Notes: generated by a model not told the origin, from the sequence alone. Counted from the stretch's first letter, positions 1 to 17,292 are shown. The stretch is 32,000 bases of DNA from Thermodesulfobacteriota bacterium (GCA_026625185.1 CP113000.1:1845622-1877621), one strand, 5' to 3'. A program made the numbers and translations.

Positions 1-1503
1 TATCAGATCGCGTCGGGAAACTTTTCCGGTTGAGGTTTTTGGCAAGGCGTCACGCGATTCTATTATTTTGGGAACCTTGAAATTTGCGAGATGCTCCCGG
101 CAGAAAGCAAGCAGCGCTTTTTTATCGAGCCGTTTTCCCGGTTTCAGCACCACGACCGCTTTGATCGCCTGTCCCCGGTCTTCATCCGGAATCCCGACGG
201 CTCCTGCCTCGAGGATGTCGTGATGTTTCAAAAGAACATTCTCCACTTCCGCGGGAAAGACATTTAAGCCCCCAGTAATAATCATATCGTCTTTTCTTCC
301 CAGGTGGTAGACAAAACCGTCTTGATCTATCTTTCCCAGATCACCGGTATGGAGCCATCCATCCTTAATCATCTCCTGGGTGTCTTCAAGGCCATTATGG
401 TAGCCCTTCATAACCATAGGCCCCTTAACAACGATCTCCCCGACCTCTCCGGGAGCAACTTCCTGGTCATTGCCGTCTAAGAGCCTTAATACTATCTCCG
501 GCACGGGGAGGCCGATGCTTCCCATCTTGGTGTCGGCATAGTCAAGGGGCAAGAGCGTTATATAAGGCGAAGTCTCAGTAAGACCATATCCCTGGATGAC
601 CTTTACTGTGGGAAAAGCGTGCCGGAATTCTTGCATCAGCGGCAAGGGGACATTTGTCCCCATCATGGAGACATAAACCAGGCTTTTTAAGTGGTATCGT
701 TCGGGATGGGGCACGCGCAGAATGGCCTGAAAAATCGGCGGCACGCCGAAAAAATAGGTTACGCCAAAGCGGTCAACTTCTTCGAGAATGCGATCCGGCC
801 GGAGATTTTCAAATAACACGATGGTTGAACCATTGAGGGCGATCATGTTGGATATGATGGGACCGGAAATGTGGGAGAGGGGGATGATGAAGCCAATGAC
901 GTCATCTTCTCCTGCACCGACCATCCGATTCATGGTAAGCGGGTAATAATCCAAGTTCTTAAACGTGAGCACGACCCCTTTAGGCTTTCCGGTGGTTCCG
1001 GAGGTATAGAGGTAGAGTGCCTCATCCGCTTCATCAATCGCGACTTCCTCCAATCTTGTTGGGACATCCTCGCTTAAGAGAGCTTCTAAGCGAAAAGTTT
1101 CCGGGTGTTCGCCTTCAAAAAGCACCACCGTATGGAGCAGTCTCCGCGCCGCGCCTAAATCAGATTCAATTTCCACAAATTTATCCTTTAAGGTAAAGAG
1201 CGCTTTAACGTCCGCATCCATCAAGACGGAGAATAATTCATCTCCTTTAAAACGAAAGTCGAGCGGCACTCCGATTGCTCCCAGCCTGATTATCCCAAAG
1301 TAAATGATTATGAACTCGGGGATATTAGGGAAAACGATTGCCACGCGATCTCCCTTTTTGATTCCGCGGCGTGAAAGAAAAGTTGCCACCCGGTCAGCCC
1401 TCAGGTCAAGCTCGCTAAAAGTGAAAGACTTATTTCCAAAGATAACAGCCTTCTTATCCGGCAGTCGGGAAGCGGTTTTTCGTAGTACTGTTCCGACATT
1501 CAT
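1..1503 (-). CDS. AMP-dependent acyl-CoA (or acyl-ACP) synthetase, fatty-acid--CoA ligase family; the 3' end leaves the window by a few codons
   Basis: Absent from the ORF track because it is open at the left edge. The rc ATG is at 1503-1501, preceded by AGGTGA. My translation begins MNVGTVLRKTASRLPDKKAVIFGNKSFTFSELDLRADRVATFLSRRGIKKGDRVAIVFPN. The in-frame AMP-binding P-loop YTSGTTGKPKG lies at 1008-976. The last codons in the window read LPKTSTGKVSRRDLI, the usual C-terminal motif of this family. Confidence 0.9.
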   Translation of the reverse strand, partial: MNVGTVLRKTASRLPDKKAVIFGNKSFTFSELDLRADRVATFLSRRGIKKGDRVAIVFPNIPEFIIIYFGIIRLGAIGVPLDFRFKGDELFSVLMDADVKALFTLKDKFVEIESDLGAARRLLHTVVLFEGEHPETFRLEALLSEDVPTRLEEVAIDEADEALYLYTSGTTGKPKGVVLTFKNLDYYPLTMNRMVGAGEDDVIGFIIPLSHISGPIISNMIALNGSTIVLFENLRPDRILEEVDRFGVTYFFGVPPIFQAILRVPHPERYHLKSLVYVSMMGTNVPLPLMQEFRHAFPTVKVIQGYGLTETSPYITLLPLDYADTKMGSIGLPVPEIVLRLLDGNDQEVAPGEVGEIVVKGPMVMKGYHNGLEDTQEMIKDGWLHTGDLGKIDQDGFVYHLGRKDDMIITGGLNVFPAEVENVLLKHHDILEAGAVGIPDEDRGQAIKAVVVLKPGKRLDKKALLAFCREHLANFKVPKIIESRDALPKTSTGKVSRRDLI

Positions 1504-1658: not shown

Positions 1659-3140
1659 TTAAAAGCCGTATTTAATCTCACAATACACCTCATCATTGTC
1701 CCGGAATTCACCGAGAAGGGTTCCCCGTTTTCCCCAGAACATATGACCGCCTACGGCGACATTCAGGTAGTCCCTGACCTCGTACTCGATCCGGGGCGAT
1801 ATTCTCCACTCGTTTAGCGTTCCGTACATGAACAGGCAATCGGGCTTGATTCTTTCATGCATGAAGTCAGTGGAGATTCTGGTGGTTAAAAAGGTATAGT
1901 ATTTATTGAGTCGGGCATTGGTCGGACCAAAAAGAAGATTATTCCCATTTTCGCTGGTTTTGTTTGTCACGAGTTGGATGAACTGAAAACTGGCCAGCCA
2001 GTTGGTCACAATGTATTTATCGATCCCGAGCACGTACTTATAGTTATCCACTTTGGTAATTCCGTAATAGATAGCCTTAGTTGGTACGGAGTAAGGGTAG
2101 AAAGGAACAGATATATAGTCCTTAAGCCACAACCCTTCAGTCTTGTTATTGTTGTTGTGGATATAGGCAAACTCTCCACGGACGGTGGTTCCGGTTAAGG
2201 GGCCGCTGTTAATACCTTTAGTAAAGGTAAAGCCAAGGAGTTGGGTCATAGGGTATTTATACTTCAACACATAATCTCCTTGGTAAGGTCCGTTTGTAAA
2301 TTGCTGAGGACCCAAATTAGAGATATGGACGTTTCCTGCAAACGTGCCATAACCGTGGAGGTAGTTGAGAGTATATTCGAGCCCATTGGGAAGAATGTCG
2401 AGCCACCGCACGCCGAAGGAAGAATTTTTAAAGCTCTGACCAGGGTACTGGTGATTTTCATCAAACGTGTAATGCCCATTTGATGCTAATTGGTGTAATG
2501 GATCAATGAGGTCCTTTTGGAGGAGGGTAAAGGAATAGTAGGTAAAGGGCGAGCCGGCAGGCGCGTAGTAGTCGGTTTCAAAATCCGGTATAAAGAGAAA
2601 CTGGAGAGTACCGTTGACCTTTGGAGAATATTCAATCTTCAGCATCCACCGGGGAATCCTGCTGTCCGCATAGTTATCGAGAAGATACTCTCTCTGGTCA
2701 GTAGGGCAGACCACATCCATAATCTTGATGCCATCGGCAGTACCCCACACCACCTGCTGTTTCCCAATCCTGACATCCAGGCTGGGTGATTCGTAGTTTA
2801 GGTAACATTCCCTGAGCCAGTCAGTACCCCGGGTGCGGTGAAGACGGCTCCGGTTATCTTCGAACAGAGGATTTACATCAAAAGCATTGTCATAGAAATA
2901 ACGAAAAATAGTGAAAAAACTGAATCTGTCATTAAGCATGTACTCAGCTTCAAGCTGGAAGGTGTTTTCGATCTTCATGAACTCACGGTCATGATTGGGG
3001 TTATAGGCGGTCTCATTCTTTAAAAATCCGGAGAGGGTTAACTTATTATCCAGCAAAGAAAGAGATGCCTGAGCAACCTTAGCGCTGCTCAGTAACAGGA
3101 GACATGCTCCGGCAACAAATAAAGCGATCGATTTCCTCAT
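1659..3140 (-). CDS. Outer-membrane beta-barrel protein, DUF1302-like
   Basis: 493-aa ORF with signal peptide MRKSIALFVAGACLLLLSSAKVAQA. The sequence is aromatic- and Gly-rich with an alternating pattern. The C-terminus is ...CEIKYGF, with the terminal Phe typical of OM barrels. It resembles the DUF1302 family (from memory), which normally pairs with LolA-like/DUF1329 proteins. Confidence 0.6.
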   Translation of the reverse strand: MRKSIALFVAGACLLLLSSAKVAQASLSLLDNKLTLSGFLKNETAYNPNHDREFMKIENTFQLEAEYMLNDRFSFFTIFRYFYDNAFDVNPLFEDNRSRLHRTRGTDWLRECYLNYESPSLDVRIGKQQVVWGTADGIKIMDVVCPTDQREYLLDNYADSRIPRWMLKIEYSPKVNGTLQFLFIPDFETDYYAPAGSPFTYYSFTLLQKDLIDPLHQLASNGHYTFDENHQYPGQSFKNSSFGVRWLDILPNGLEYTLNYLHGYGTFAGNVHISNLGPQQFTNGPYQGDYVLKYKYPMTQLLGFTFTKGINSGPLTGTTVRGEFAYIHNNNNKTEGLWLKDYISVPFYPYSVPTKAIYYGITKVDNYKYVLGIDKYIVTNWLASFQFIQLVTNKTSENGNNLLFGPTNARLNKYYTFLTTRISTDFMHERIKPDCLFMYGTLNEWRISPRIEYEVRDYLNVAVGGHMFWGKRGTLLGEFRDNDEVYCEIKYGF

Positions 3141-3165: not shown

Positions 3166-4101
3166 CTACCATTTGGTCCGCATCAGCGCTTTGGGTGACA
3201 AAAGCTTTTCATCCACCCCGCTGTTAAACCTAATCCATTCGATTTCAACTGCAGTGGTATGATTTGTTCGGTGGTCAACACATTCCACATAGTTCATCGG
3301 GATGCACCCATTATCGCGTATTTCATACGTCCTGAGGATGTCTTTAAATTTTTTGCCATTGGGATCAAAAACATCATCGTGGACTTGAGCGCCAATATCT
3401 TTAGGAATAAACAAAGTTCGCCTTGAATAATACCACGGCTTACGTTTTGGTGTTGCTTCTACTACCCAACTGGGTGTATTTTTATAATAGGTCTTTCCGG
3501 TGTACTGAGAGGTATAGCCTGCAAAGGTGGCATCTTCTTTTACAAACTTATACGTTTCACTACTCCAGTTGCGGGTGGTCAATTCCTCAGTGGTGAGGTC
3601 TGACCCAAACGCAGCATCATCATCTTCCGCAGGCGATGCTCGGCGGATTTTTCTCTGACTGGGGAGCCAGATCCAGTTATCGCGCTCCCGGTTGGGGTCG
3701 AGGTACATCCAGGTAAGCACTGCCAGACCTTTGATATGCTGAGGTTCGGTTAGCACGATCAGATCCTTATAATCAAGTCCATCCTTTTCCAGAATGACCC
3801 GATAACGTTGCCATTTACGGGTCCGCTTAAGGCCGCTTCGGTCAATCATGACAAAATTCCCCACGCTCTCCTGGTCTTTAGCAAACTTAGTATATTTTAT
3901 AATATACTTAATTTGCATCAGGTTGTTCACATCAATGCCTGGATAAAGGTTTACTTTTTTGCAGCAGGTGGAGCAATCAACCGGAGCAGGTAGTAAGAGT
4001 GGTCTTTCTTCAGCGAAAGCTGGTTTAGTGTTCCCGCCTCCGAAAATTAAACCTACCAGCATGATGATGAGAAAGAATGGTAACAGTTTCAGCTTCATCA
4101 T
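3166..4101 (-). CDS. Periplasmic LolA-like outer membrane lipoprotein-sorting family protein
   Basis: 311-aa ORF with signal peptide MMKLKLLPFFLIIMLVGLIFGGGNTKPAFA. The block KGLAVLTWMYLDPNRERDNWIWLPSQRKIRRASPAEDDDAAFGSDLTTEEL matches the W-Y-LP-x-RRVRR...GSDF-x-EDL signature I recall for the LolA_like/DUF1329 group. GGAGGGAG lies upstream of the ATG. Confidence 0.65.
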   Translation of the reverse strand: MMKLKLLPFFLIIMLVGLIFGGGNTKPAFAEERPLLLPAPVDCSTCCKKVNLYPGIDVNNLMQIKYIIKYTKFAKDQESVGNFVMIDRSGLKRTRKWQRYRVILEKDGLDYKDLIVLTEPQHIKGLAVLTWMYLDPNRERDNWIWLPSQRKIRRASPAEDDDAAFGSDLTTEELTTRNWSSETYKFVKEDATFAGYTSQYTGKTYYKNTPSWVVEATPKRKPWYYSRRTLFIPKDIGAQVHDDVFDPNGKKFKDILRTYEIRDNGCIPMNYVECVDHRTNHTTAVEIEWIRFNSGVDEKLLSPKALMRTKW

Positions 4102-4255: not shown

Positions 4256-5260
4256 TTATTGGATTTTAACCTCTTTAAAAAGCGCAAAAAGCCGAGTAAA
4301 CGGTAAGTACCAGCGGGTGAGTTTTGTTAACTCACCCTTTAATTCCATCTTTTTTTGGGTGGTGGCCACAAAGGGGTCGAGTTTTCCAAAAAAAATCTGC
4401 TGCCAGATTTCCCGGGAAGCAGAGATTACAAAAGGAGCCTCACCAGCTTCATCAAGACCGTCTATCTTTCCTTTGACAAAATGAAACGTATATGCTTTTC
4501 CTGCTTCGCTGGCAAGCATGATTGCGAGGTCAACGCTTAGATCAAACTCAGCGCCTAATTTCCTAAAGGATTCATCGTTGTTCACCAGATCAACAATTGC
4601 CTCCATATGAGGCAAGGAAAACATCTCATAGAAAACCGCAGAAGAAGGTGAGAGGTCTTTTTTCAACTCTTCCTCAAAAGGATTCAGAGTTTCTTTTTTA
4701 AAAAGCCTGGCTACCCCGGCCATCCTCACCGCCTCTTCCAGACTTTCAATCAGATAAAAGGCCTCAGTAAAATTTTCTCCCATGGAGACCACACCATGAT
4801 TCTTCATTGCAACTAAATTGTTCATTTTAAGGGCATCAATAACTTCTTTGGGATTGGTTACACTGGGGGTGAACTGTTTTACTGCCGGAATCTGGCCTAA
4901 GAAAAGTTTGGTTTCAAAGGTTAAGATTTCTAGGTCATCATATACGGAAAAATAGGCATTGGTAAGAGGAGGGTGGCAGTGGATCACCCGGTTAATCTTG
5001 CTGAAATTTTTATAAATGAGACTATGCAAAGGAAACTCGGTAGAAAGACTTTTATTCGTGCAGTCAGCAGAGTTGGTTAAATCAACCGTGATAATATCTT
5101 CTTCTCTCAACTCACCCAGACTTACTGAGGTGGCAGTGATAAGGATTGTATCCTGCGCAAGACGGGAGCTCAAATTACCCCCACGGGCGACTGCCAGGCG
5201 GAGGTCATAAAGTTTTTTCCCTAATCGAATAATTTCTTCTTTTAGGAATTTTTCTTCCAT
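4256..5260 (-). CDS. Class II aldolase/adducin-family domain (MtnB/Ald2/FucA-like) fused to a C-terminal SCP2 sterol/lipid-binding domain
   Basis: 334 aa. The N-terminal ~200 aa carry class II aldolase hallmarks (GGNLSSRL, VIHCHPPLTNAY, MKNHGVVSMGENFTEAF). The C-terminal ~100 aa (AYTFHFVKGKIDGL...FFGKLDPFVATTQKKMELKGELTKL) match the SCP2 pattern GKL-x-P-x-AF-x-GKLKIKG. The start overlaps the upstream stop by 1 nt. Confidence 0.75.
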   Translation of the reverse strand: MEEKFLKEEIIRLGKKLYDLRLAVARGGNLSSRLAQDTILITATSVSLGELREEDIITVDLTNSADCTNKSLSTEFPLHSLIYKNFSKINRVIHCHPPLTNAYFSVYDDLEILTFETKLFLGQIPAVKQFTPSVTNPKEVIDALKMNNLVAMKNHGVVSMGENFTEAFYLIESLEEAVRMAGVARLFKKETLNPFEEELKKDLSPSSAVFYEMFSLPHMEAIVDLVNNDESFRKLGAEFDLSVDLAIMLASEAGKAYTFHFVKGKIDGLDEAGEAPFVISASREIWQQIFFGKLDPFVATTQKKMELKGELTKLTRWYLPFTRLFALFKEVKIQ

Positions 5261-6198
5261 CAGGAGATTCTCAGATAAATATGTCTGGTAATCAATGCTG
5301 CCGGGGTGATGTCAAAAGCGGGGTAATAGCCTTTCACTTCCTTTGGGGCAATTCTTTGGCCGGCAATGGTTAAGAGCTCTTTATCAGGTCGTATTTCAAT
5401 AGCAATATCCTTTCCGGTTCCGGCGTTTGACGGGGGGGGCGCCAGAACATAGAAGGGGATTTTAAATTTTCCGGCTAACAGGGCGATCTGATACGTTCCG
5501 ATCTTGTTGGCAATGTCTCCGTTGCGGGCAAGCTGGTCTGCGCCGGTGATTACTTTATTGACCAAACCTTCCGCAAATACATGGGCGACCGCACTGTCGG
5601 GAATGATGGTCACGTTAAATTCCGCTCTCTGGAGTTCCCAAGCCGTTAACCGCGAACCCTGAAAATAGGGCCTGGTTTCAGTAACAAAAAAGCTTATATG
5701 TTTTTTTTGTTTTCGGCAAAACGCCCCTATCAAAGGTAAAAGCCCGCTTACATTGCAGTGGGTAAGGATGACATCTCGGTCTTCAAAAAGCGCGCCGGCT
5801 GCCTGCGCTTGTTCGATCCGTTTAGCTTTAAGAAATTCCAAGAACCCTTTAATATTTTTTTCTACGGTAGAAGGTTCTTTTCCCCAGTCCAAGACCATGT
5901 CCGTTAAAAATTTAAACGGTAACGTGGGCCGGGTGGCATTGAGACTTTTAGCAATGAGGCTGAGGGTTGGTAAAAGCTTTTTCTCCTCCTTAATGCGTCT
6001 TACATAAAGCAGAAACGTGTAGAAAACCAGAAGCACCTGGCCGATAGCGCGGGTCTTCATGCTTTTTATCGCCCGACACGCCTCCTGATAATTTTTTATT
6101 TTAAAGTAAATGAGGCGTTGGGGGAGCTTGGTCTCATCAAGCGCCGAGATCGTCTCGCCTTTAAGCTCGACCGGCCAGAAAAGCGGAGAAAAATCCAT
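5260..6198 (-). CDS. eIF-2B alpha/beta/delta-family sugar-phosphate isomerase (5-methylthioribose-1-P / 5-deoxyribose-1-P isomerase-like)
   Basis: 312 aa. Motifs are VILTHCNVSG (compare THCNTG) and TGADQLARNGDIANKIGTYQIALLAGKFKIPFYVLAP (compare GADRIAANGDTANKIGTY), as in MtnA-type isomerases. It abuts the phosphorylase gene with no gap. Confidence 0.8.
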   Translation of the reverse strand: MDFSPLFWPVELKGETISALDETKLPQRLIYFKIKNYQEACRAIKSMKTRAIGQVLLVFYTFLLYVRRIKEEKKLLPTLSLIAKSLNATRPTLPFKFLTDMVLDWGKEPSTVEKNIKGFLEFLKAKRIEQAQAAGALFEDRDVILTHCNVSGLLPLIGAFCRKQKKHISFFVTETRPYFQGSRLTAWELQRAEFNVTIIPDSAVAHVFAEGLVNKVITGADQLARNGDIANKIGTYQIALLAGKFKIPFYVLAPPPSNAGTGKDIAIEIRPDKELLTIAGQRIAPKEVKGYYPAFDITPAALITRHIYLRIS

Positions 6199-6948
6199 TT
6201 ATTTTCCTTCCAGGTTTTTAACCGTTTGAAGAGCAATTTGAATGAGCTTTGTTTCCGCCATATAGTAGAGGGGGTTCATAAAACCCATCTCTCCGGTAAT
6301 CACATTATCGCTGACCGCCAGGATAGAAGCCGCCTTGACGTTATAAAGTTGGCTGATGGTAAGGAGGCACGATGAGACCATATCCACGGCGATCGCTCCT
6401 TCTTTCCGCTTTGCTTCGACAACTTCCCGGGTTTCCCGGAGGAGGGCATCCGTGGTCCAGACTTTGCCGGTGTAAACCTGCGACCCCATTCCTTTAGCTA
6501 CCTCGATGAGGGTGTCAGTAAGTTTTTTATCCGGCGTGGTTATAAATTTTTCATCAACATAATAAGGCGTTACCCCATCACCCCTGATAACGCTATCCAC
6601 CACAACCAAGTCTCCGACCTGCATTTTTTCATCTAAGGCACCACAGGTTCCGATCCGGATGATGTTTTTTATCTCCGCGTTACAGACAACCTCAGTGGTA
6701 ATGGCAGTATCCGCGCTGAACCTTCCGCCATTGATGGTGGTGATTTTCATCCCGTCGTATTCTCCGGTATACATGGCGTATTCCATAAAGGAAAAATTTC
6801 GCATCGCATCTTTCAATTTTTTAATCAGCACCTCCATCCGGTCTTTTGGTCCGGGAATGATGGCCCATTCTCCCACATCCTGGGGCCTTAACTGCACCAT
6901 GTCCGTTAGTTCTTTGCCGGTTAAATGGATCGGTTTCTGCATCTCCAT
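6199..6948 (-). CDS. Nucleoside phosphorylase, PNP_UDP_1 family (purine/uridine/MTA-type)
   Basis: 249 aa. The block NIIRIGTCGALDEKMQVGDLVVVDSVIRGDGVTPYY and the later AVDMVSS are typical of hexameric DeoD/Udp-type phosphorylases. Substrate is not inferable from sequence alone. Confidence 0.75.
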   Translation of the reverse strand: MEMQKPIHLTGKELTDMVQLRPQDVGEWAIIPGPKDRMEVLIKKLKDAMRNFSFMEYAMYTGEYDGMKITTINGGRFSADTAITTEVVCNAEIKNIIRIGTCGALDEKMQVGDLVVVDSVIRGDGVTPYYVDEKFITTPDKKLTDTLIEVAKGMGSQVYTGKVWTTDALLRETREVVEAKRKEGAIAVDMVSSCLLTISQLYNVKAASILAVSDNVITGEMGFMNPLYYMAETKLIQIALQTVKNLEGK

Positions 6949-6949
6949 G

Positions 6950-7864
6950 TCATGCTCCTTTCAGCAGATTATTAATAGTTTCACCGAGAATATTTTTTAT
7001 TTCGTTTTGGCTCAGGGGGAGTTGGGAAACTGCCTCCTGTGAACCCTTGATATCTTTTTTTGCCGGCCAGTCGCTTCCCCACAAAATATGCTGCGTGCCT
7101 AAGAGCTCTAACGCGGAAAGGAAGTTGGAGGTGGTTTTATCCCCGCCGGTATCCACATAGATATTTTTAAGGAATTGGGTGGGATTACCTCCCAAGTCTT
7201 TTACAAAATTAATTCCGCGTAACATTTTATAGGTCTCGTCAAACCGGTTGGCCACATGAGTGATGATGCCGCCAAAATTTGAAAAAATAAGCGTGAGTTC
7301 CGGAAAGAGCGTGAAGATGTCTGCCATCAAAAGTTTGCCAATGGAAATAGTGGTATCAAAAACATATTCGATAACCGGGGTCAGTAGGGGATCATTCACC
7401 CGTTCTGATCCGATGGGGTTGATAATCTGGGGATGAACAAAAATAGGGATGCGATTTTTCTGGGCGATCTCAAAAATCGGCCAAACCGTCCGGTCATCAA
7501 GATAAACCCCGTTATAGCTGCTTGCCAAAGAGAGAGCGCGAAAACCCAGCTGTTCAGTTGCGCGTCTCAGTTCGAAAACCATTTCTTCGGAATTGCCGAG
7601 CGGCAGTATAGCGGCGCCAATAAACCGATCAGGAAAGCGGACAACAATCCGGGCGATTGCGTCGTTATAAATTCTGGCTACCTCATTGAAGCTTCCCATT
7701 TTGAGGTGGGCGTTGGTGGTGGGGTAGCTTAAGACTGCCTGGTCTATTCCCGCTTTATCCATCATCGATACCTGAGCTTCAATATCACCCCACGCCGGGG
7801 AGAAAAAATGAGCATTGCGAATGATTTCCTCGGGCAGCCAGTGGCTGTGGGCGTCAATAATCAT
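6950..7864 (-). CDS. Amidohydrolase_2 (PF04909, ACMSD/resorcylate-decarboxylase-type) metal-dependent hydrolase/decarboxylase
   Basis: 304 aa. The N-terminus MIIDAHSHWLPEE carries the HxH metal motif. FVHPQ and WGSDWP blocks are typical of the family. The start overlaps the upstream gene by 4 nt. Confidence 0.7.
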   Translation of the reverse strand: MIIDAHSHWLPEEIIRNAHFFSPAWGDIEAQVSMMDKAGIDQAVLSYPTTNAHLKMGSFNEVARIYNDAIARIVVRFPDRFIGAAILPLGNSEEMVFELRRATEQLGFRALSLASSYNGVYLDDRTVWPIFEIAQKNRIPIFVHPQIINPIGSERVNDPLLTPVIEYVFDTTISIGKLLMADIFTLFPELTLIFSNFGGIITHVANRFDETYKMLRGINFVKDLGGNPTQFLKNIYVDTGGDKTTSNFLSALELLGTQHILWGSDWPAKKDIKGSQEAVSQLPLSQNEIKNILGETINNLLKGA

Positions 7865-8256
7865 TTATGTTCAGTACTCCGTAAAATCCGTTCAACCATT
7901 TCCTGGTGATAAAGGTTTTTTATTTCTTCCAAACCGTCTGCACCCAATTCTTTCACGATTGCTTTTTCGATGGCTTTTAATTTTAAAGCAAGAAATTGGT
8001 GTTCGGGATTGAGGTAGTCTCCTTTCAGTGACCTCAAGGTTTCGCAGTCCTTGTCCTTATTGTTCACATAAGTGTTAAAGTCCTCAAAAAAAATTTGATA
8101 GTTAAGTTCTTCTTTTCGCAACTCTTCTCGAATAAACTTATCTATGTCAATCTGGGTGAACTTCCGGTCGACACGATCAAGGGCTTCTTTGGTTTCTTTA
8201 TAAAGCCAGATGAGATATCTTTTCTTTAAATTAAGAGTATCGTCCATTTTCATCAT
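7861..8256 (-). CDS. Hypothetical protein (131 aa, charged, predicted helical)
   Basis: The ORF is translationally coupled on both sides (4-nt overlaps at 8253-8256 and 7861-7864). I recognise no motif in it. Confidence 0.5.
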   Translation of the reverse strand: MMKMDDTLNLKKRYLIWLYKETKEALDRVDRKFTQIDIDKFIREELRKEELNYQIFFEDFNTYVNNKDKDCETLRSLKGDYLNPEHQFLALKLKAIEKAIVKELGADGLEEIKNLYHQEMVERILRSTEHK

Positions 8257-9026
8257 TTATCAGGGTGCTCCTGTTTGTAAGGGATTACCGGTTCGGTCCA
8301 TGGGGTCTGCTGGTTGATAACCGAAATCTCCAAAGGACAAACATTCGCCGGCACGTTTAGCGCGAATTTGACGGCATTTTCAATTGCCTCCGTGGTCATC
8401 AGCCGTGATCGATCCACGGTTATTTTATCAAGTTTTTCGGTCAGCTCGGTATCGGTTACTCCGGGAAGGATGGAAGTTATCTTTATTCCATGGTCCCGCA
8501 TCTCCCAGAAAAGGCCTTTGGAAAAAGCCCGCAGCCCGACTTTTAAAGAACTATAAACCAGGAACGTTCGCGGAAGCGGATCACAGAGGGTGGAACCGGA
8601 GACCATATTGATAATGGTGCCGGACTTTCTTTTTATCATATCGTTTATGACTAAACGGATCATTCGCACGTAACCCAGGTAGTTGGTATGAACCAACCGT
8701 TCAAAATCCTCAAACGGCTGTTTTTCAAACGGGTACTGGCTCGAAATTCCGGCATTGTTGATCAGAATATCAATCGCTCCAAATTGTTTTTGAGTCTTTT
8801 TTACCAGGTTCTCAAGATCTTCGAATTGCGTTACATCAGTTGAAACCGGGAGGACCTCGACTCCATAATGGTTTGCGATTTCGACCGCGGTTTCTTCCAA
8901 AGGACCTTCTCCTCGGGCTGCCAAGCTCAAGTTGATCCCAAGACTCGCTGCTGCTTCCGCAATCGCCTTGCCGATGCCGCGGCTTGCGCCGGTGATGATA
9001 GCGGTCTTTCCTTTTAACAGTTCCAT
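8253..9026 (-). CDS. Short-chain dehydrogenase/reductase (SDR), candidate ketoreductase
   Basis: 257 aa. It has the TGASRGIGKAIAE cofactor motif, NNAG (LINNAGISS) and catalytic YSSLK (YxxxK). Confidence 0.85.
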   Translation of the reverse strand: MELLKGKTAIITGASRGIGKAIAEAAASLGINLSLAARGEGPLEETAVEIANHYGVEVLPVSTDVTQFEDLENLVKKTQKQFGAIDILINNAGISSQYPFEKQPFEDFERLVHTNYLGYVRMIRLVINDMIKRKSGTIINMVSGSTLCDPLPRTFLVYSSLKVGLRAFSKGLFWEMRDHGIKITSILPGVTDTELTEKLDKITVDRSRLMTTEAIENAVKFALNVPANVCPLEISVINQQTPWTEPVIPYKQEHPDK

Positions 9027-9027
9027 A

Positions 9028-10119
9028 TTATGCCTCCTGACGTAAGATAATGAGCTTTCTGGTCATCATGAAGAGAATAAGCAGACACGTTCCAAAAAGA
9101 ATAAAACCAAAATTAAAGCTTTTTTGCATCACTATTCCTCCTAAAACGCCGCCCAGCCCGGCGGAGAGAAAACGTACGGCGCTGTTTAAACTGGCGGATT
9201 CAAACACCTGGGTTAAGGGGAGGTCGGTGAGAAAGGTAGAGACCCCGACATGATTAAATGTCCACCCTAAGCCCCAGGCAAACATTAACGTAAAAAGAAT
9301 CAATAAACTTCCTTTTACCAACAGCGAAAAAGCAACCCCAATCATGAGACCTTTCCCGATGCGGATAACTTTTGTTCTGCCCAGGTGATCCGCGAAAACT
9401 CCTCCGGCGGCAGAACCGATAATACTGCTTACACTGACGGTGGTTAAAAGCAGACTGATAAAGAATTGCTCCAGGTGGTTCACCAACGAGAAATAGACCC
9501 CGAGCCATTGAGTGATACTATGATAGAAGAGACTTACCAAAAAAATATAGGTAAAGAGCCTAAAGACCGTCTTATCTTCCAATGCTTGGCGGTATTGAAC
9601 CGTGAAATCTTCTTTTTGCAATAAAAGCGGAGGGAACAGGAAGTAAAGAGTCAAACAAGAAACGATTCCGGCTATCGCGGGTATTAAAAATATCCAGCGC
9701 CACCCCGTAAAGCCACTCAAAAAAACTCCCAGGAGTGAGGCCACAAAGGTTGAGCTAAAGAACAAACCGACGCGTTTGCCTCGCTCACTGTCCGGGGTGG
9801 TTTTGGCAATAAGTATTAAGGCAACCGGAATAACCCCTGCGCCTGCAAGACCGGCTAAGACGCGCGCAAAAAGAATCTGATTAATGTTTTCCGCCAATCC
9901 ACCTAGGACATTCGCAACGGAAAGAAGACCCATGCAAAACAACAGGAGGGAACGCGGATCCCGGCTGCGGGTAAGAGGGCCGTAAAAAAGCGCCGCCACG
10001 CCATAGGGAATCAAGTAAAACCACAACATTCGCCCGGCCACAAAAGGATCAGTTCTAAATTCAGAGGCTACGGAGGGCACCAGCGCTGACATTGCCGCCA
10101 CATTAAAAGAAAGAACCAA
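9028..10119 (-). CDS. MFS transporter (N-terminus uncertain)
   Basis: 363 aa and polytopic. It has MFS-like loops (GPLTRSRDPRS, ADHLGRTKVIR). The tracked start is TTG at 10119. The reading frame stays open upstream to 10172 and encodes a hydrophobic IKKQTLYILSFCGL stretch that looks like the missing part of TM1. Confidence 0.75.
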   Translation of the reverse strand: MVLSFNVAAMSALVPSVASEFRTDPFVAGRMLWFYLIPYGVAALFYGPLTRSRDPRSLLLFCMGLLSVANVLGGLAENINQILFARVLAGLAGAGVIPVALILIAKTTPDSERGKRVGLFFSSTFVASLLGVFLSGFTGWRWIFLIPAIAGIVSCLTLYFLFPPLLLQKEDFTVQYRQALEDKTVFRLFTYIFLVSLFYHSITQWLGVYFSLVNHLEQFFISLLLTTVSVSSIIGSAAGGVFADHLGRTKVIRIGKGLMIGVAFSLLVKGSLLILFTLMFAWGLGWTFNHVGVSTFLTDLPLTQVFESASLNSAVRFLSAGLGGVLGGIVMQKSFNFGFILFGTCLLILFMMTRKLIILRQEA

Positions 10120-10154
10120 CCCGCAAAAAGATAAAATATAAAGGGTTTGTTTTT

Positions 10155-10595
10155 TTATGACCCCGCCTCCTTTTCAATCACGGCTTTAAAAATTTTCAGG
10201 TTTTCTTTGGAGTGCTGGTTAATGAATTCTTCAACTTGTTCATCGTTAAATGCTGCTTTTGGATCCATCTTAAAATGCTGGATCCAGGTGAGCTCGATCC
10301 CTTCAGGCTTTGGGGTATAAAGCCAGATGATTTTCATGAATTCAAAAGGAAATTTCGGTTCTTCTCTTTCTGCGTAAGCCAAGTAGTTTTCTTTAAACAA
10401 AAGTCGAAATGATTGCCAGGTTCTTCCTTCTTTATCAGTAAGCTTGAAGGTGATTTTATTGTTTTCTTTTTTAACGACAACTGCTTCTTTATATTCACCG
10501 CCGAAAAGCTCGGTCCACCGGGGAATGTTATTCGAGATGTCGAAAATTAAATCGTAGGGAGCCTTGATAATAATGGAATTACATGTATGTCCCAT
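10155..10595 (-). CDS. SRPBCC-superfamily protein (polyketide cyclase/aromatase-like, Polyketide_cyc2-type)
   Basis: 146 aa. The N-terminus SIIIKAPYDLIFDISNNIPRWTELF and the size fit the START/Bet v1-like cyclase/dehydrase fold. GGAGGA lies upstream of the ATG. Confidence 0.55.
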   Translation of the reverse strand: MGHTCNSIIIKAPYDLIFDISNNIPRWTELFGGEYKEAVVVKKENNKITFKLTDKEGRTWQSFRLLFKENYLAYAEREEPKFPFEFMKIIWLYTPKPEGIELTWIQHFKMDPKAAFNDEQVEEFINQHSKENLKIFKAVIEKEAGS

Positions 10596-10617
10596 GGGTA
10601 TCCTCCTTTGTATTGTT

Positions 10618-11415
10618 TTATACCATCGCCACTACCCGCGCCCAGGCTGCTCCGGCATCCTTGATTTTTATTGGGAAGCAGGAAATTTTAAAGCCAAAGG
10701 GAGGTAGTTTCTTCAAATTGGTCAATCTTTCAATATGAGCGTATTCCTTTTTACGACCAAAAAAATGAGCGGGCCAAAGATATGAGGCATCTTTGGTGCG
10801 CAAAAAATCAGCCATCATAAAAGGGTAAGGACGGTCAAAGCCAAGCGCATCAATGCCGATAACCTTTACTCCCTGATCCAAAATATACGCCAACGCTTCC
10901 GGGGAAACACCCGGATAGTTGGCTAAGTACTCAGGAGTCCCGAAATACTGATCGGCATCCGTGCGAAGCAGCACAATATCTTGGCGCTTGATAGTATAGT
11001 TTATCTTGTTTAATGCACTGAGCACATCTTCCCTGGAGATCACCTCGCCCGGTTTTTTGTGCGATACATCCAACACCACCCCGTCACCAAAACACCATTC
11101 AAGGGGAAGCTCGTTTATGGTCTTGGATTTTTTTCCTTCCGAACGAGTCCCGTAATGGAAAGTGAAATCCACATGAGTGCCAATATGGACTGGACAGTGA
11201 ACGGTCTCGAGCGATAAAAATTCTCCGTCCGGAAGATCTTCGAACTTGATAATTCTCTTTCCCAGAAAATAGGAAATTTTTCCCCAAAGCGTCTTTTTGA
11301 GCATTACCCAGTTTAAATGTTTTACCCCTTCGCGGTGATTGATTCGCTCAATGCCAAAGGGATGGACTTCGAAAGAACGTTCATCAATGGAGAGGCTTAA
11401 ATCAAACAGTTGCAT
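10618..11415 (-). CDS. Cyclase-family protein (PF04199; kynurenine-formamidase/polyketide-cyclase type)
   Basis: Contains VHIGTHVDFTFHY, which is the HxGTHxDxPxH-type metal motif. I place the start at the ATG at 11415 (MQLFDLSLSIDE...), not the tracked 11502, because the longer form would overlap the ACP gene by 100 nt. Confidence 0.7.
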   Translation of the reverse strand: MQLFDLSLSIDERSFEVHPFGIERINHREGVKHLNWVMLKKTLWGKISYFLGKRIIKFEDLPDGEFLSLETVHCPVHIGTHVDFTFHYGTRSEGKKSKTINELPLEWCFGDGVVLDVSHKKPGEVISREDVLSALNKINYTIKRQDIVLLRTDADQYFGTPEYLANYPGVSPEALAYILDQGVKVIGIDALGFDRPYPFMMADFLRTKDASYLWPAHFFGRKKEYAHIERLTNLKKLPPFGFKISCFPIKIKDAGAAWARVVAMV

Positions 11416-11650
11416 GGAGTAATAACTTTCCCTGAATAACCCGATCAATATCCTTAAAACAAGAAAATTTGGTAATTTCTTTTTCCATAATATTGATGCC
11501 AAATAATTTTTCGATCGCGAGGATAAGCTCTACCGTTTCCGTAGAATCAAGACCAAGACCGCTATAGAGTTCCACATCATCCTTGATTTCGTCTGGATCA
11601 ATCTCAAAAAGCTCGATCAAAAGGTTTTTAACTTTTTCTTTAACATCCAT
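11402..11650 (-). CDS. Acyl carrier protein
   Basis: 82 aa beginning MDVKEKVKNLLIELFEID, with the phosphopantetheine-attachment motif LGLDSTETVEL. GGAGGAAGCAAACTT lies upstream of the ATG at 11650. The tracked 112-aa form is a spurious 5' extension into the rSAM gene. Confidence 0.85.
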   Translation of the reverse strand: MDVKEKVKNLLIELFEIDPDEIKDDVELYSGLGLDSTETVELILAIEKLFGINIMEKEITKFSCFKDIDRVIQGKLLLHATV

Positions 11651-11667: not shown

Positions 11668-13128
11668 TTAAATCTGGACCTCTCCTTTGGTTGCTCCCGC
11701 TTCCCATTTTCCGACTCCGGCCATGACATCTTGGAAGCAAAGTTTAGCGAGAACATCAAAATCACTTTCCATAATGCGGTTTATTCTTCCCGGCTTGGAG
11801 TAAAATTCACGCATACACCAGGCGCCCAGCCGCCCCAGGTCTTCAACCGTAAGGTGATCGGTAGGCATGACGGGGTGGAGAAAATCCCACCGGCTAAAAT
11901 CTACGTTTCGAGCGTCAATCCACTTATTCTTAAGCGATTTTCTCCAAACCGGAGAATTGGGCGCCGGAGTCACATAACCAATCCAGAGAATATCCGGATC
12001 AACCTCATCGGTAAATTCGTATCGCTGCTTGATAATCCGCTCATCATCATAGTCAAAGCCCATCATAATATCCGCTACTACGGCAATATTATTTCTCCGA
12101 AGAATTTCGATAGTTTTTTTGATCTGATCAACGGTGATCCCTTTGGCGATCTTTTTCAGCTCCTCGGGGGTGGTGACTTCAATGCCAAAAACACCGATGA
12201 AAAGCCCTGACTCTTTCATTAACGGAAGGATTTCCTCGCAATTAATCCAGTCCACTGCTCGTCCTAAGGAAACCCACTTGATCGGAATATTTTTCTTGAG
12301 CTTAAGCTCGCAGAACCGCTTAACCCGCGCGGGATCAACATTGAAGTTATCATCCTGGATAACCACGACTTTAACGCCATATTGTCGGTGAAGAATTTCC
12401 AGCTCGTCAATGACCCGTTCAGGAGATTTAGCGCGCCATTTAAGGAAGTCTCTGGGGGATCGCGGATCATACTGATCCCATTCATAACAGAAAGTACAGG
12501 CGGAAGGACATCCCCGCGAGGTAACCATTTCCACAAACGGCTTCCAGTGGGTGTGACCAACATAGCGATCCATGGGATAAAGATCGTAAGCCGGAAAAGG
12601 GAGTTTATCTAAGTTCTCTGATAGCGCCTTGTGAGGTCCCATGACAATCTGTCCGTTGACCCGGGATGTGACTCCTGCGACTGCCTTAAGGTCTTTATTG
12701 TTGTTAAGCGCGTCAACCAAGTCAAAAAAGGATTCTTCTTCGCCCATGACCACAAAATCAACGGCGGGATTATCTTCTAAGGTCTCGACCGGCATGGCTG
12801 AATACCAGAGCCCGCCCAAGATGATTTTAGTTTTTGGCAGAACGTCTTTGATTAATGCGGCGGACTCATTAAAATGCGCGATAATCCCGTAACCGCCGTA
12901 AGAATGGAGCATATCACCAATAACCACTACATCGGGATTGTTCTCCTTTACTTTTTCTATCATTTTTTCTTTTGCTATATCCAAAGCTTTGCAGTCCAAG
13001 ACCTCGATATCCCGGTATCCTTTTTCTCGAATATAGGCAGCCCAGTGAGCGTAAAGTTGGTTAGGTGCTAAGTGCTTTCCATGGGTTGCCCAAGCCCCGA
13101 CTCTGGGCATGACAAATAAAATTTTCAT
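11668..13128 (-). CDS. B12-binding-domain radical SAM enzyme (class B rSAM)
   Basis: 486 aa. The N-terminal Rossmann-like cobalamin-binding region is MKILFVMPR...DVVVIGDM...IILGG...DFVVMGEEE. It is followed by the CxxxCxxC cluster motif SRGCPSACTFCYE. Confidence 0.85.
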   Translation of the reverse strand: MKILFVMPRVGAWATHGKHLAPNQLYAHWAAYIREKGYRDIEVLDCKALDIAKEKMIEKVKENNPDVVVIGDMLHSYGGYGIIAHFNESAALIKDVLPKTKIILGGLWYSAMPVETLEDNPAVDFVVMGEEESFFDLVDALNNNKDLKAVAGVTSRVNGQIVMGPHKALSENLDKLPFPAYDLYPMDRYVGHTHWKPFVEMVTSRGCPSACTFCYEWDQYDPRSPRDFLKWRAKSPERVIDELEILHRQYGVKVVVIQDDNFNVDPARVKRFCELKLKKNIPIKWVSLGRAVDWINCEEILPLMKESGLFIGVFGIEVTTPEELKKIAKGITVDQIKKTIEILRRNNIAVVADIMMGFDYDDERIIKQRYEFTDEVDPDILWIGYVTPAPNSPVWRKSLKNKWIDARNVDFSRWDFLHPVMPTDHLTVEDLGRLGAWCMREFYSKPGRINRIMESDFDVLAKLCFQDVMAGVGKWEAGATKGEVQI

Positions 13129-14363
13129 GCTGTCTCCTTTTTTTCAATAACGATAACTGTATTAATGCCTCCTCGGCCCCGTGAAATGACCAGCGCCTTA
13201 TTGATCTCTTTTTCATGAGCCTTACCGATGATGTAATTGAGACCCTCAGGGTCAGGCACCTCAATATTAATCGTTGGGGGAACCGAATTGTGCTCCATTG
13301 CTAAGATAGTCGAAATGAGATCTACCGAACCTGATGCCCCCAACAAATTTCCAAACATTGATTTGGGACAACTTACGGGGACGGTTTTTGCCTTATCTGC
13401 GAAAACGTCTTTTATAGCTTTGGCTTCGCTTTGGTCCCACACTTCTACGGCTAAACCGTCCAAGCTTATATAGTCAATTTCTTCGGGCGCTGTCTCTGCT
13501 TCATTTAAAGCCATCCGTATCGCCCGGGCTAATTGTTTGCCGCTGGGGTCAGGGTTAATCCGATCTTTGCCATCGCAAGTATTTCCAACGCCCGAAATAA
13601 CTGCCAAGATATTTGACCCCCGCGCCTCAGCACGATCAATGTTTTCCATCAGGATTACCCCGGATCCTTCTCCGATCACAAAGCCCTGCCGGTTTTTGTC
13701 AAACGGGCGATACGTTTTATGGGGATAATCATTATTTTCCGCAATACCTCCATAGGTATTACAGCATAAGAGGGCATAGGGAGTAACCGGAGCTTCCGTA
13801 CCGCCGGCTAAGATCATGTGGAGTTTTCCCTTCACCAAGGTGTCCCGCGCATAGCCTACGGCCATTAAAGAACTTGCGCGGTCAGCTACCACGGTTTTGC
13901 TGAAGCCTTTTATCCCGTAATAGATGGAGACCTGTCCTTGAGGTGCGGCCGGAAACCACGCCGAAGCCATATACGGAGATACTCCCTCCCGGCCTTCGAT
14001 GTAAAGGTCGCGCAGTTCGGTTTCAGCGTAAAGCCAGCCTCCCAGAGCATTGCCTAAAAATATCCCCACCAGGTTGGGATCTTCTTGCCTAATATCCATC
14101 TTGGCATCTTCAAGCGCCATCTCGGAGGCAACCAAGGCCATATGCGAGAAAAGATCGATTTTTTTGAGAAGGCGTCGCGATAATAAGCCGTAGTTCTCCA
14201 AATCATCGATCTGTCCCGCAATATGGGAAGGATACTGAGAAGCATCAAAACGAGTGATCTTCTCCACAAAAGAGCGCCCGGATTTGATGTTTGCCCAAAA
14301 CTGCCGCTTGCCGATACCCGGAGGAGCTACGACTCCTATCCCGGTGACTGCTACCTTTTTCAT
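13125..14363 (-). CDS. Ketosynthase-beta / chain-length-factor-like subunit (thiolase fold, catalytic triad absent)
   Basis: 412 aa. It aligns along its length with the upstream KS, but the active-site block reads VVADRASSLMAVG (Arg where KS has Cys). The His blocks read TCDGKD, SLDGLA and KSMFGN (His to Asp/Asp/Asn). The start shares 1 nt with the KS-alpha stop (TAATG). Confidence 0.8.
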   Translation of the reverse strand: MKKVAVTGIGVVAPPGIGKRQFWANIKSGRSFVEKITRFDASQYPSHIAGQIDDLENYGLLSRRLLKKIDLFSHMALVASEMALEDAKMDIRQEDPNLVGIFLGNALGGWLYAETELRDLYIEGREGVSPYMASAWFPAAPQGQVSIYYGIKGFSKTVVADRASSLMAVGYARDTLVKGKLHMILAGGTEAPVTPYALLCCNTYGGIAENNDYPHKTYRPFDKNRQGFVIGEGSGVILMENIDRAEARGSNILAVISGVGNTCDGKDRINPDPSGKQLARAIRMALNEAETAPEEIDYISLDGLAVEVWDQSEAKAIKDVFADKAKTVPVSCPKSMFGNLLGASGSVDLISTILAMEHNSVPPTINIEVPDPEGLNYIIGKAHEKEINKALVISRGRGGINTVIVIEKKETA

Positions 14364-17291: not shown

Positions 17292-17292
17292 T

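Follow-up and report, generated by a model that had tools for sequence, protein, structure and literature searches.

The successive action of a nucleoside phosphorylase, an MtnA-type isomerase and a class II aldolase characterises the dihydroxyacetone phosphate (DHAP) shunt, or 5-deoxyribose salvage, where the steps are carried out by MtnP (or MtnN together with MtnK/DrdK), MtnA/DrdI and Ald2/DrdA, respectively (PMC6079011, PMC10986504). A related series serves the fluoroacetate and 4-fluorothreonine producers Streptomyces cattleya and Nocardia brasiliensis (FlA, FlB, a 5-fluoro-5-deoxyribose-1-phosphate (FDRP) isomerase, a fuculose-type aldolase and an aldehyde dehydrogenase (ALDH)), in which C5'-C4' of the ribose of a nucleoside derived from S-adenosylmethionine (SAM) becomes X-CH2-COOH by way of purine nucleoside phosphorylase (PNP), isomerase, aldolase and ALDH (PMC3999930). 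In other systems radical adenosylation is followed by removal of the base, as by HpnH/HpnG (adenosylhopane to ribosylhopane) and MqnE/MqnB (futalosine) (PMC13459092). Here we compare these systems with three consecutive genes on the minus strand of a 32,000-nt stretch of DNA from a Thermodesulfobacteriota bacterium (GCA_026625185.1, CP113000.1:1845622-1877621; hereafter the window, with coordinates counted from its first letter). The trio encodes a nucleoside phosphorylase of 249 aa (6199-6948; PF01048 (PNP_UDP_1), 3.9e-35), an isomerase of 312 aa from an MtnA subfamily (5260-6198; PF01008 (IF-2B/MtnA-like), 4.9e-54) and a class II zinc aldolase of 334 aa fused to an SCP2 domain (4256-5260; PF00596, 3.7e-35; PF02036, 8.2e-5). 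On balance we consider it probable that the trio forms the catalytic centre of an autonomous four-gene module, a specialised variant of the DHAP shunt in which the aldehyde would be oxidised and then thioesterified. The module is previously undescribed and entirely uncharacterised, and a literature search returned no relevant description of the aldolase-SCP2 fusion, of this gene combination or of links between LsrF and 5-deoxyribulose.

The module would have in common with the DHAP shunt the three chemistries, predicted here from adjacent genes in the same order; it also has the Cys/Asp pair of the MtnA lineage and a putative class II zinc aldolase. A first-pass annotation of this DNA had described the trio as DHAP-shunt-like, with junctions of 0 and 1 nt and in one operon with an upstream radical SAM (rSAM) gene. 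The coordinates agree exactly: read directly from the sequence, the phosphorylase stop TAA abuts the isomerase ATG with a gap of 0 nt, and isomerase and aldolase overlap by 1 nt in TGATG. The proposed enzyme logic also appears sound, with intact, family-typical catalytic residues in all three predicted proteins. However, the match to the shunt holds for the predicted reaction series only; none of the proteins is an MtnP, MtnA, Ald2 or DrdA ortholog by curated cut-offs, and since no protein reaches an equivalog threshold the module is not formally classed as a member of the shunt. The phosphorylase falls into the hexameric DeoD/SsMTAP class and not into that of MtnP, and it has altered ribose and phosphate contacts, while the isomerase belongs to a 'THCNVSG' subfamily below the MtnA equivalog cut-off. 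Moreover, the module adds SCP2 to the aldolase, a FadD-like ligase and usually an ALDH, and it sits in a lipid operon with rSAM, ketosynthase (KS) and chain-length-factor (CLF) genes.

The phosphorylase scores far under the cut-offs of the NCBIfam models that it matches (Udp 97 bits against 280, DeoD 92 against 232, MTAN 56 against 169 and HpnG 56 against 187). Its resemblance to HpnG and MqnB is at the superfamily level only (55.8 bits to the HpnG model TIGR03468, cut-off 187; 35.9 bits to futalosine hydrolase, cut-off 124.7). In HMMER comparisons with solved structures its AVSDN motif aligns with TVSDH of the B. cereus adenosine phosphorylase AdoP and VVSDN of S. solfataricus methylthioadenosine (MTA) phosphorylase (MTAP), which is among its closest solved relatives (5e-19), and the Asp of the motif corresponds to the catalytic Asp of purine enzymes. 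Uridine phosphorylases gave the best-scoring NCBIfam and PDB matches but were ruled out by the VSD motif and the missing Gln/Arg insertion; the streptococcal enzyme has VVGNQ at the motif position and an insertion that the window protein lacks. A grouping with pyrimidine-specific uridine phosphorylases, which the first-pass annotation had named as refuting its proposal, is thereby dismissed. Two of the three phosphate-binding Arg are kept (R37 and R98), whereas the third is replaced by Met and the ribose-binding Glu181 of the EME motif by Val, both replacements being invariant across the phosphorylase family. Because of the VSD motif, the missing uridine phosphorylase insertion and these two replacements, we assign the protein as a putative purine-type enzyme, hexameric and DeoD/Udp/SsMTAP-like, with an altered sugar site. 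It is 71-78% identical to its Omnitrophota orthologs.

The isomerase passes the model of the eIF-2B-related subfamily (TIGR00524, 194 bits, cut-off 186) and stays below the MtnA equivalog (TIGR00512, 210 bits, cut-off 279). Catalytic Cys148 (THCN) and Asp221 (GAD) are invariant. An all-against-library HMMER comparison shows that 'THCNVSG' and a shortened loop occupy the place of 'THCNAGALAT..GTALG' in canonical MtnA, and the nearest 50%-cluster representatives are only 38-52% identical to the window protein. Among PDB entries, MtnA structures match best (1.8e-43 for 1t9k to 7e-39), with ribose-1,5-bisphosphate isomerases at 1.3e-25 or worse; an identity as the latter, the second refutation put forward in the earlier annotation, is rejected on this difference (1e-25 against 1e-43). 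The protein is hence best placed as a separate 'THCNVSG' subfamily of the MtnA lineage. Many members of this subfamily are 470-510 aa long (P0121, P0124, P0127 and P0128 of loci L088-L090; L111:9983-11509). Their C-terminal extension is a partial duplicate of the protein's own Rossmann-like half without the catalytic residues, and the idea that these isomerases of ~500 aa are isomerase-aldolase fusions was rejected, since the extension duplicates the C-terminal half of the isomerase. The duplicate piece also occurs as a separate gene directly after the isomerase (L091:2932-3315, L174:1911-2468), and the 312-aa window isomerase is without it.

The aldolase exceeds the usual length of its family by ~120 residues and carries a C-terminal SCP2 (lipid-carrier) domain that was absent from the first-pass annotation. 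The catalytic Aldolase_II domain covers residues 8-180 (4721-5239, minus strand; Pfam envelope and alignment to S. pneumoniae FucA, 4c25), and the SCP2-like domain covers residues ~211-317 (4310-4630, minus strand; PDB 1wfr, 6e-5, and 2cx7, 1.2e-4, both over residues 211-317; Pfam 8.2e-5 over residues 253-315). PF02036 is precomputed in most homologues, of which more than 1000 are full-length, and an AlphaFold2 model (pLDDT 90.6) has a confident alpha/beta C-terminal domain. Across 50 diverse homologues eight residues do not vary (G28, N29, S31, T42, E75, H94, H96 and H155); they correspond to the phosphate-binding, Glu73 and His3-Zn positions of FucA. By Foldseek the protein is structurally as close to the 5-deoxyribulose-1-phosphate aldolase DrdA (6btd/6btg; 3e-12 for 6btd) as to FucA (2fk5, 5e-14). 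No model is matched at equivalog level; FucA-type models give ~100 bits, MtnB models 55-60 bits (cut-offs 137-226) and a haloarchaeal ribulose-1-phosphate aldolase model a weak 48 bits. These features fit a FucA/DrdA-type zinc aldolase, although a dehydratase or decarboxylase activity of the same superfamily would also be compatible with the sequence. An MtnB dehydratase seems less likely, given the lower MtnB scores and the lack of downstream salvage genes. The mobile C-terminal tail of FucA closes the aldehyde pocket, according to literature as cited in PMC6079011, and SCP2 is attached where this tail would sit. A lone aldolase-SCP2 gene of Omnitrophota (L001/L002:10001-11008), 57% identical to that of the window and flanked by an unannotated 350-aa gene and by 2-oxoacid:ferredoxin oxidoreductase genes, is possibly an additional copy located apart from the cluster.

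The arrangement is conserved far beyond the window. One genome per species was scanned for the phosphorylase family, 210 genomes contained a relative, and every operon protein was mapped by tblastn onto the best 80 loci, with counts covering those loci that extend far enough. Nearly all of the 80 belong to Omnitrophota (some labelled Planctomycetales) and a few to Thermodesulfobacteriota, among them relatives 94-95% identical to the window. The isomerase comes after the phosphorylase in 72/74 loci, the aldolase-SCP2 follows in 70/71 and an ALDH in 60/65, and an rSAM gene lies within 10 kb upstream of the phosphorylase in 41/44, insertions having displaced it beyond this range in two of the three misses. 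As the arrangement is syntenic in ~70 other species-level genomes, it is far beyond chance. The co-occurrence of trio and rSAM gene in related clusters, which the earlier annotation had asked to be analysed, is thus borne out, also by rSAM-PNP-isomerase-aldolase arrays in distant lineages. Of its third refutation, a trio that is the only methionine-salvage copy of the genome and lies here by chance, the chance placement can be discarded on the conserved synteny and on the colocalisation in shuffled order elsewhere. We consider it extremely improbable that housekeeping genes for methionine or 5'-deoxyadenosine salvage have come to lie in the operon by accident: the family-level annotation is that of salvage enzymes, but synteny in ~70 species of two phyla, shuffled orders in other lineages, the divergence of the proteins and the unique fusion all speak against it, and mere chance adjacency is rejected on the synteny and the shuffled orders. 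Canonical methionine salvage is a poor match as well, since the MtnB models are reached with 55-60 bits only, no HAD enolase-phosphatase was seen in any locus and a small cupin with a weak ARD match occurs in 8 loci only.

In loci other than the window, gene content was determined by tblastn (45-50% coverage thresholds) and by Pfam on a sample of open reading frames (ORFs), many contigs being short. Contigs with isomerases 38-52% identical to that of the window (L088-L091) show the orders rSAM-phosphorylase-isomerase-aldolase with overlapping junctions (L088), rSAM-phosphorylase-isomerase-LolA-like (L089), phosphorylase-isomerase-rSAM (L091) and phosphorylase-isomerase-aldolase-SCP2-ligase (L090), and the same genes are colocalised in shuffled order in L139. 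A metagenome scan seeded with distant isomerases yielded 582 relatives and two further architectures. Type D reads ligase-phosphorylase-isomerase-aldolase-ALDH-rSAM-89aa-ApbA-TIGR04076-KS-KS-ACP-cyclase (also in L174), and type C consists of MarR, a GlcF-like Fer4_8+CCG protein, phosphorylase, a 508-aa isomerase, aldolase-SCP2 and ligase; the hosts of type C are entered at NCBI as Binatota or 'Deltaproteobacteria RIFCSP'. A ligase goes with the trio in every one of the four architectures. Phosphorylase, isomerase, aldolase-SCP2 and FadD-like ligase form the constant core, which has been joined to rSAM and KS-CLF genes repeatedly and in different orders, a pattern classically read as a sign of functional coupling. 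The rSAM gene is a frequent partner of the core, not an obligatory one.

The downstream genes connect the module to the second known system. The Omnitrophota order is phosphorylase, isomerase, aldolase-SCP2, ALDH and FadD-like ligase, whereas the window's own operon is without the ALDH. The PNP, isomerase, aldolase and ALDH series of the fluoroacetate pathway corresponds to the first four genes of this order, which are consecutive in 60/65 loci that extend far enough. To our knowledge that pathway is the only known biosynthetic use of a PNP, an MtnA-like isomerase, a class II aldolase and an ALDH in succession. The SAM-cleaving enzyme here is a radical SAM enzyme, in contrast to the fluoroacetate pathway, and the hosts are anaerobes of unrelated phyla; fluorinase/chlorinase (PF01887) was not found among the Pfam-annotated ORFs of the window and of representative loci, which are a part of the 170 loci. 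The Omnitrophota ALDH has the hydrolytic ELGGK and GQxC motifs (Glu/Cys), and its nearest relatives are phenylacetaldehyde and betaine-aldehyde dehydrogenases (BADH). For the Omnitrophota ligase they are FadD5 and the long-chain ligases of PRK06187 rather than acetyl-CoA synthetase. In the window the ligase is the last gene of the operon (2-1503, minus strand, with the 3' end at the window edge; PF00501, 5.6e-90) and 75% identical to its L005 ortholog.

We therefore propose, because the Omnitrophota order corresponds to the fluoroacetate steps followed by thioester activation, that the aldehyde and not only DHAP is carried forward. A 5'-modified purine nucleoside would be phosphorolysed to adenine and a pentose-1-phosphate, which would be isomerised to the ketose-1-phosphate and cleaved by the aldolase to DHAP and an aldehyde X-CH2-CHO; this would be oxidised to the acid by the ALDH and activated as a thioester by the ligase. 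What we observe is gene order, catalytic residues, family placement and synteny across phyla, and from these we infer the reactions, the way in which flux runs and what X is. In the window and most of its relatives the module would have been recruited into a KS/CLF/acyl carrier protein (ACP) and B12-binding rSAM operon for a lipid or polyketide with its own exporters. The first-pass annotation had suggested a dedicated disposal of the rSAM by-product or, alternatively, supply of a C2 or C3 unit to the pathway. The link to rSAM stands, but the module is not strictly private to it: the Binatota type, L093 and L166 have it without an rSAM gene. The supply of a C2 unit gains from the hydrolytic ALDH and the FadD-like ligase directly after the aldolase, which favours it over pure detoxification.

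The input of the module in the window operon would most likely be an adenosine-derived product of SAM cleavage by the rSAM enzyme. 5'-Deoxyadenosine is the universal by-product of rSAM enzymes, and a bulk lipid pathway with such an enzyme would produce it in quantity. That this by-product is the actual input is the likeliest of the propositions, if one that falls a little short of being probable; adenine, DHAP and an acetyl unit would then be recycled into the pathway. In 17-19 Omnitrophota loci, an LsrF-like DeoC/LacD thiolase and a zinc-dependent sugar-type dehydrogenase (Zn-ADH) stand beside the aldolase, directly after aldolase-SCP2 or ALDH for instance in L021:14116-15972, L052:12710-14555 and L012:2857-4701. 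The LsrF-like protein reaches 357 bits with the NCBIfam model for 3-hydroxy-5-phosphonooxypentane-2,4-dione thiolase (cut-off 297). This suggests an undescribed route in which oxidation at C4 of 5-deoxyribulose-1-phosphate would give the LsrF substrate and hence DHAP and acetyl-CoA, and the LsrF-like accessory therefore favours a small 5-deoxy substrate. A second candidate of small size is MTA, which would pass through methylthioribose-1-phosphate and methylthioribulose-1-phosphate to DHAP and methylthioacetaldehyde, with methylthioacetate and its thioester as the outcome. The DHAP shunt handles MTA (PMC10986504), the closest solved relatives of the trio include S. solfataricus MTAP (5e-19) and MtnA enzymes, and the CCG-domain (heterodisulfide-reductase-like) protein of the Binatota type could, speculatively, fit sulfur chemistry. 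However, MTA is not among the products of B12-rSAM enzymes, which yield 5'-deoxyadenosine and S-adenosylhomocysteine, genes of the MtnB/C/D type or for the recovery of methanethiol were not seen, and SCP2 would go unexplained, so that we hold sulfur salvage to be quite improbable.

The Binatota type bears on whether the nucleoside has to be modified at all. A GlcF/HdrD-like Fer4_8+CCG protein is encoded directly before the phosphorylase in 31 such loci (e.g. L111:8006-9235), and in five a molybdenum enzyme of the xanthine-dehydrogenase/aldehyde-oxidase family, with 2Fe-2S, FAD and MoCo subunits, is encoded a few kb further downstream (further coordinates for these Fe-S and Mo enzymes, L110:8311-10524 and L104:15403-16023); the latter could take the place of the ALDH or use the liberated purine as its substrate. 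Both are compatible with ordinary purine nucleosides as input, adenosine, inosine or guanosine being converted by way of ribose-1-phosphate and ribulose-1-phosphate to DHAP and glycolaldehyde and the latter to glycolate or a glycolyl-thioester, with a secondary link to the lipid cluster: the upstream protein resembles the Fe-S subunit of glycolate oxidase, and the Mo enzyme follows in the 5 loci. In addition, the weak match of the aldolase to the haloarchaeal ribulose-1-phosphate aldolase (48 bits) and a conserved H8 of the phosphorylase, which we take to be the counterpart of the His of E. coli PNP (DeoD) that binds the 5'-OH, point in this direction. Against it, SCP2, the FadD-like ligase and the tight cross-phylum synteny with KS and rSAM genes would find no explanation, and we know of no direct ribose-1-phosphate isomerase established in the MtnA family. 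We regard an ordinary nucleoside as an improbable substrate.

A 5'-deoxyadenosine or MTA substrate leaves the SCP2 fusion unexplained. A lipophilic X would be indicated by the invariant SCP2 domain, a ligase of the FadD/acyl-ACP-synthetase type, the MMPL, LolA-like and DUF1302 exporters and an LplT/acyltransferase fusion in L172, and the enzyme-SCP2 fusions known to us all act on lipids. The simplest way to obtain such an X would be addition of the 5'-deoxyadenosyl radical, by this or another rSAM enzyme, to a C=C bond of a lipid or polyketide, either free or bound to the ACP, a proposal that we judge unlikely but worth setting out. The phosphorylase would then remove adenine, the isomerase and aldolase-SCP2 would trim C1'-C3' as DHAP, and the remaining lipid-CH2-CHO would be oxidised and re-activated by the ligase. 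There is precedent in HpnH/HpnG and MqnE (PMC13459092), and the window shares with these systems an rSAM gene beside a PNP_UDP_1 enzyme in a lipid pathway and RND/MMPL exporters that resemble HpnN. In the futalosine route, only C5'/C4' of the ribose are retained and the C3 part is discarded, the very outcome that isomerase and aldolase would give here. The position of SCP2, fused where the FucA tail closes the aldehyde pocket, the nature of the ligase, the lipid exporters in the operon, the AMP-ligase that together with the LplT/acyltransferase fusion comes after the ALDH in L172 and the rSAM gene that directly adjoins the phosphorylase in L088 and L089 also fit.

On the other side, the window rSAM enzyme (486 aa; 11668-13128, minus strand; PF04055, 2e-23; PF02310, 3.6e-12), which is confirmed on the same strand and in the same operon at 4.7 kb upstream of the phosphorylase, is a B12-domain protein of the BchE/HpnJ class and not HpnH/MqnE-like. 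It scores 219 bits with BchE (cut-off 481), 148 with HpnJ and 85 with the ladderane-type TIGR04072 (cut-off 360), and no HpnH or MqnE model is among its NCBIfam matches. The phosphorylase is not an ortholog of HpnG or MqnB (56 bits against 187 for HpnG), the HpnH/HpnG and MqnE/MqnB systems themselves have neither an MtnA-like isomerase nor an aldolase, the module exists without a nearby rSAM gene in the Binatota type, L093 and L166, and the LsrF-like accessory suggests a substrate of methyl-ketone size. A third natural radical adenosylation pathway has a rather low probability in our estimate. In it, the ribose of SAM would donate two carbons to an envelope lipid that Omnitrophota, Thermodesulfobacteriota and their relatives export, and the lipid would be left with a C2 aldehyde or acid as an extension or branch.

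The enzymes might also run in reverse, with the aldolase-SCP2 joining DHAP to a lipid aldehyde and the isomerase and phosphorylase building an exported 5'-alkyl nucleoside lipid. DHAP aldolases and purine phosphorylases thermodynamically favour synthesis, L089 has its isomerase directly followed by a LolA-like gene, and L006 combines aldolase-SCP2, exporters and ligase. In L006:5607-13684 the genes are MarR, MMPL, 89-aa, aldolase-SCP2, LolA-like, DUF1302 and ligase, with no rSAM or ketosynthases, and the locus is either a deletion derivative or a sign that the role of aldolase-SCP2 is tied to lipid export. We find the reverse direction very improbable, as a hydrolytic, essentially irreversible ALDH comes after the aldolase in 60/65 loci and no acyl-thioester reductase that would make the aldehyde was found in the loci.

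Several observations weigh against the DHAP-shunt variant that we prefer. All three enzymes fall well short of the curated cut-offs (MtnP/DeoD, MtnA and FucA/MtnB), and in the phosphorylase one of the Arg that bind phosphate and the Glu that binds ribose are gone. An SCP2 domain that is invariant in more than 1000 homologues is not expected for acetaldehyde or acetate chemistry, for which a FadD-type instead of an acetyl-CoA-synthetase-type ligase is likewise unexpected. Moreover, the gene set is not always complete: in four long type C loci the 8-10 kb to both sides contain no rSAM or KS gene, the type D loci L093 and L166 are without rSAM, L006 has neither phosphorylase nor isomerase beside its aldolase-SCP2, exporters and ligase, and L037 and L172 are devoid of isomerase and phosphorylase, respectively. 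The last of these has a molybdate ABC transporter with MoeA, MoaA, MoaC and MOSC/MogA between B12-rSAM and isomerase (L172:4373-10008), and its ALDH is followed by MarR, the LplT/acyltransferase fusion, a hydrolase and an AMP-binding enzyme.

The handling of 5'-deoxyadenosine is known as housekeeping salvage. If it is recycled by the module, this would be the first by-product salvage dedicated to a single biosynthetic pathway, with the carbon fed back into that pathway; if an adenosylated lipid is processed, the ribose of SAM as a C2 donor would be new chemistry. The four soluble enzymes provide a concrete and assayable set under either reading. The module is widespread: it has relatives in at least 210 species-level genomes, the aldolase-SCP2 proteins number more than 1000, and the distant isomerases have at least 582 metagenomic relatives. 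Its hosts are mostly Omnitrophota, a phylum with hardly any cultured representatives and unexplored lipids, but also Thermodesulfobacteriota and Binatota.

If it processes an adenosylated lipid, the module would also explain what the 'ladderane-like' clusters of metagenome surveys make. Such calls were made by antiSMASH in Omnitrophota and Desulfobacterota metagenome-assembled genomes (PMC9902471), and Cluster I of anammox bacteria comprises amxACP, FabZ, FabF2, FabFmut, PDH and a B12-rSAM enzyme (bioRxiv 10.64898/2026.05.19.726425), with a chain-length-factor-like partner in the FabF pair recently shown. The window shares with ladderane-type clusters an active FabF-like ketosynthase (KS1, 14363-15628, minus strand, Cys/His/His intact), a catalytically dead, chain-length-factor-like partner (KS2, 13125-14363, minus strand), a dedicated ACP and a B12-rSAM enzyme. 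Both ketosynthases were assigned by Pfam, NCBIfam and motif inspection, and KS2 lacks the catalytic Cys and both His (ADRASS, SLDGLAV and GNLLGASG). The ACP (82 aa; 11402-11650, minus strand; PP-binding, 8.9e-9) has the motif LGLDSTE, and its orthologs occupy the same position elsewhere. This core probably explains the 'ladderane' labels in surveys. However, the window cluster is without FabZ or a phytoene-desaturase homologue, its rSAM enzyme stays far below TIGR04072 (85 against 360 bits), and it adds SRPBCC, a PF04199 cyclase, a ketoreductase, a resorcylate-type decarboxylase and the nucleoside module. These accessory enzymes look closer to an aromatic type II polyketide synthase set with a resorcylate-type decarboxylase.

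The trio belongs to one long minus-strand operon of ~20 genes, which runs from a MarR gene down to the left edge of the window and whose genes, all on this strand, were assigned by Pfam unless stated otherwise. Its first part consists of the MarR regulator (19918-20394), an MMPL/HAE3 exporter (17555-19921), an 89-aa protein without such an assignment (17293-17562), an ApbA/PanE-like reductase (16287-17324) and a TIGR04076 protein (15625-16221), the four named ones by Pfam and NCBIfam, followed by KS1, KS2, the B12-rSAM gene and the ACP. After the ACP come the PF04199 'cyclase' with an HxGTHxD motif (10618-11502), an SRPBCC protein (10155-10595), an MFS transporter (9028-10119), an SDR/ketoreductase (8253-9026), an unassigned 131-aa protein (7861-8256) and an Amidohydro_2 protein (6950-7864; PF04909, 2.7e-24). 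The latter is similar to ACMSD and gamma-resorcylate decarboxylase (PDB matches ACMSD 7e-22, gamma-resorcylate decarboxylase 1.3e-21 and 5-carboxyvanillate decarboxylase 1.5e-19). The block from the cyclase to the 131-aa gene (7861-11502) is syntenic in Omnitrophota and Thermodesulfobacteriota. The final part holds the trio, two outer-membrane lipid-handling proteins, one LolA-like/DUF1329 (3166-4101) and one DUF1302 (1659-3140), and the ligase, and the LolA-like and DUF1302 genes have the same order in L005, L006 and L011. A promoter scan of the operon gave nothing above shuffled expectation, with promoter-like hexamers upstream of MarR (20495-20440), a scan for internal terminators of the operon gave no convincing one, and no Rfam riboswitch (SAM, fluoride or others) matched at gathering threshold in the window and seven loci.

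The stop of Amidohydro_2 and the start of the phosphorylase are 1 nt apart in the window, whereas this junction is an insertion hot spot in Omnitrophota (gaps of 5-4645 nt; e.g. L076:5365-10000), and the block from phosphorylase to ligase is for this reason probably a transcription unit of its own there. The insertions include HEPN/nucleotidyltransferase and Fic toxin-antitoxin genes and crcB. In 11 genome loci (L020:3502-4199, L026, L059, L062, L064, L069, L070, L075, L076, L084 and L087) and in L170, a crcB fluoride channel gene with DUF190 separates Amidohydro_2 from the phosphorylase; the pair is on the same strand, usually ends ~24 nt before the phosphorylase start and is distributed patchily on the tree of PNP plus isomerase. 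It is intriguing in that the genes after it resemble the fluoroacetate pathway. A link to fluoride was set aside, the pair being patchy and in an insertion hot spot and no fluorinase having been seen among the ORFs covered, and is at most a hint. Between ligase and a GDSL lipoprotein gene, 44 Omnitrophota loci encode RlmN, an rSAM enzyme that methylates rRNA/tRNA (387 bits, cut-off 290; e.g. L028:15690-16718), probably a conserved housekeeping neighbour rather than a member of the pathway, and in 29 loci a CBM_11-like ORF of 231 aa separates the SDR gene from that of the 131-aa protein. In L003:13178-15423 and L007:12526-14779 the ALDH is followed by a carbamoyltransferase with an SxtJ-like protein, a pairing known from saxitoxin-type clusters, which hints that the product may be carbamoylated in some lineages. 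In the window itself, an AcrA/AcrB-type RND efflux pair and a TetR regulator (26501-30903) have 54-56% G+C against ~45% in the remainder, suggesting foreign origin or a different codon regime, and nearby lie a fragment of an IS200-like transposase (22967-23704) and a truncated epimerase (24868-25371).

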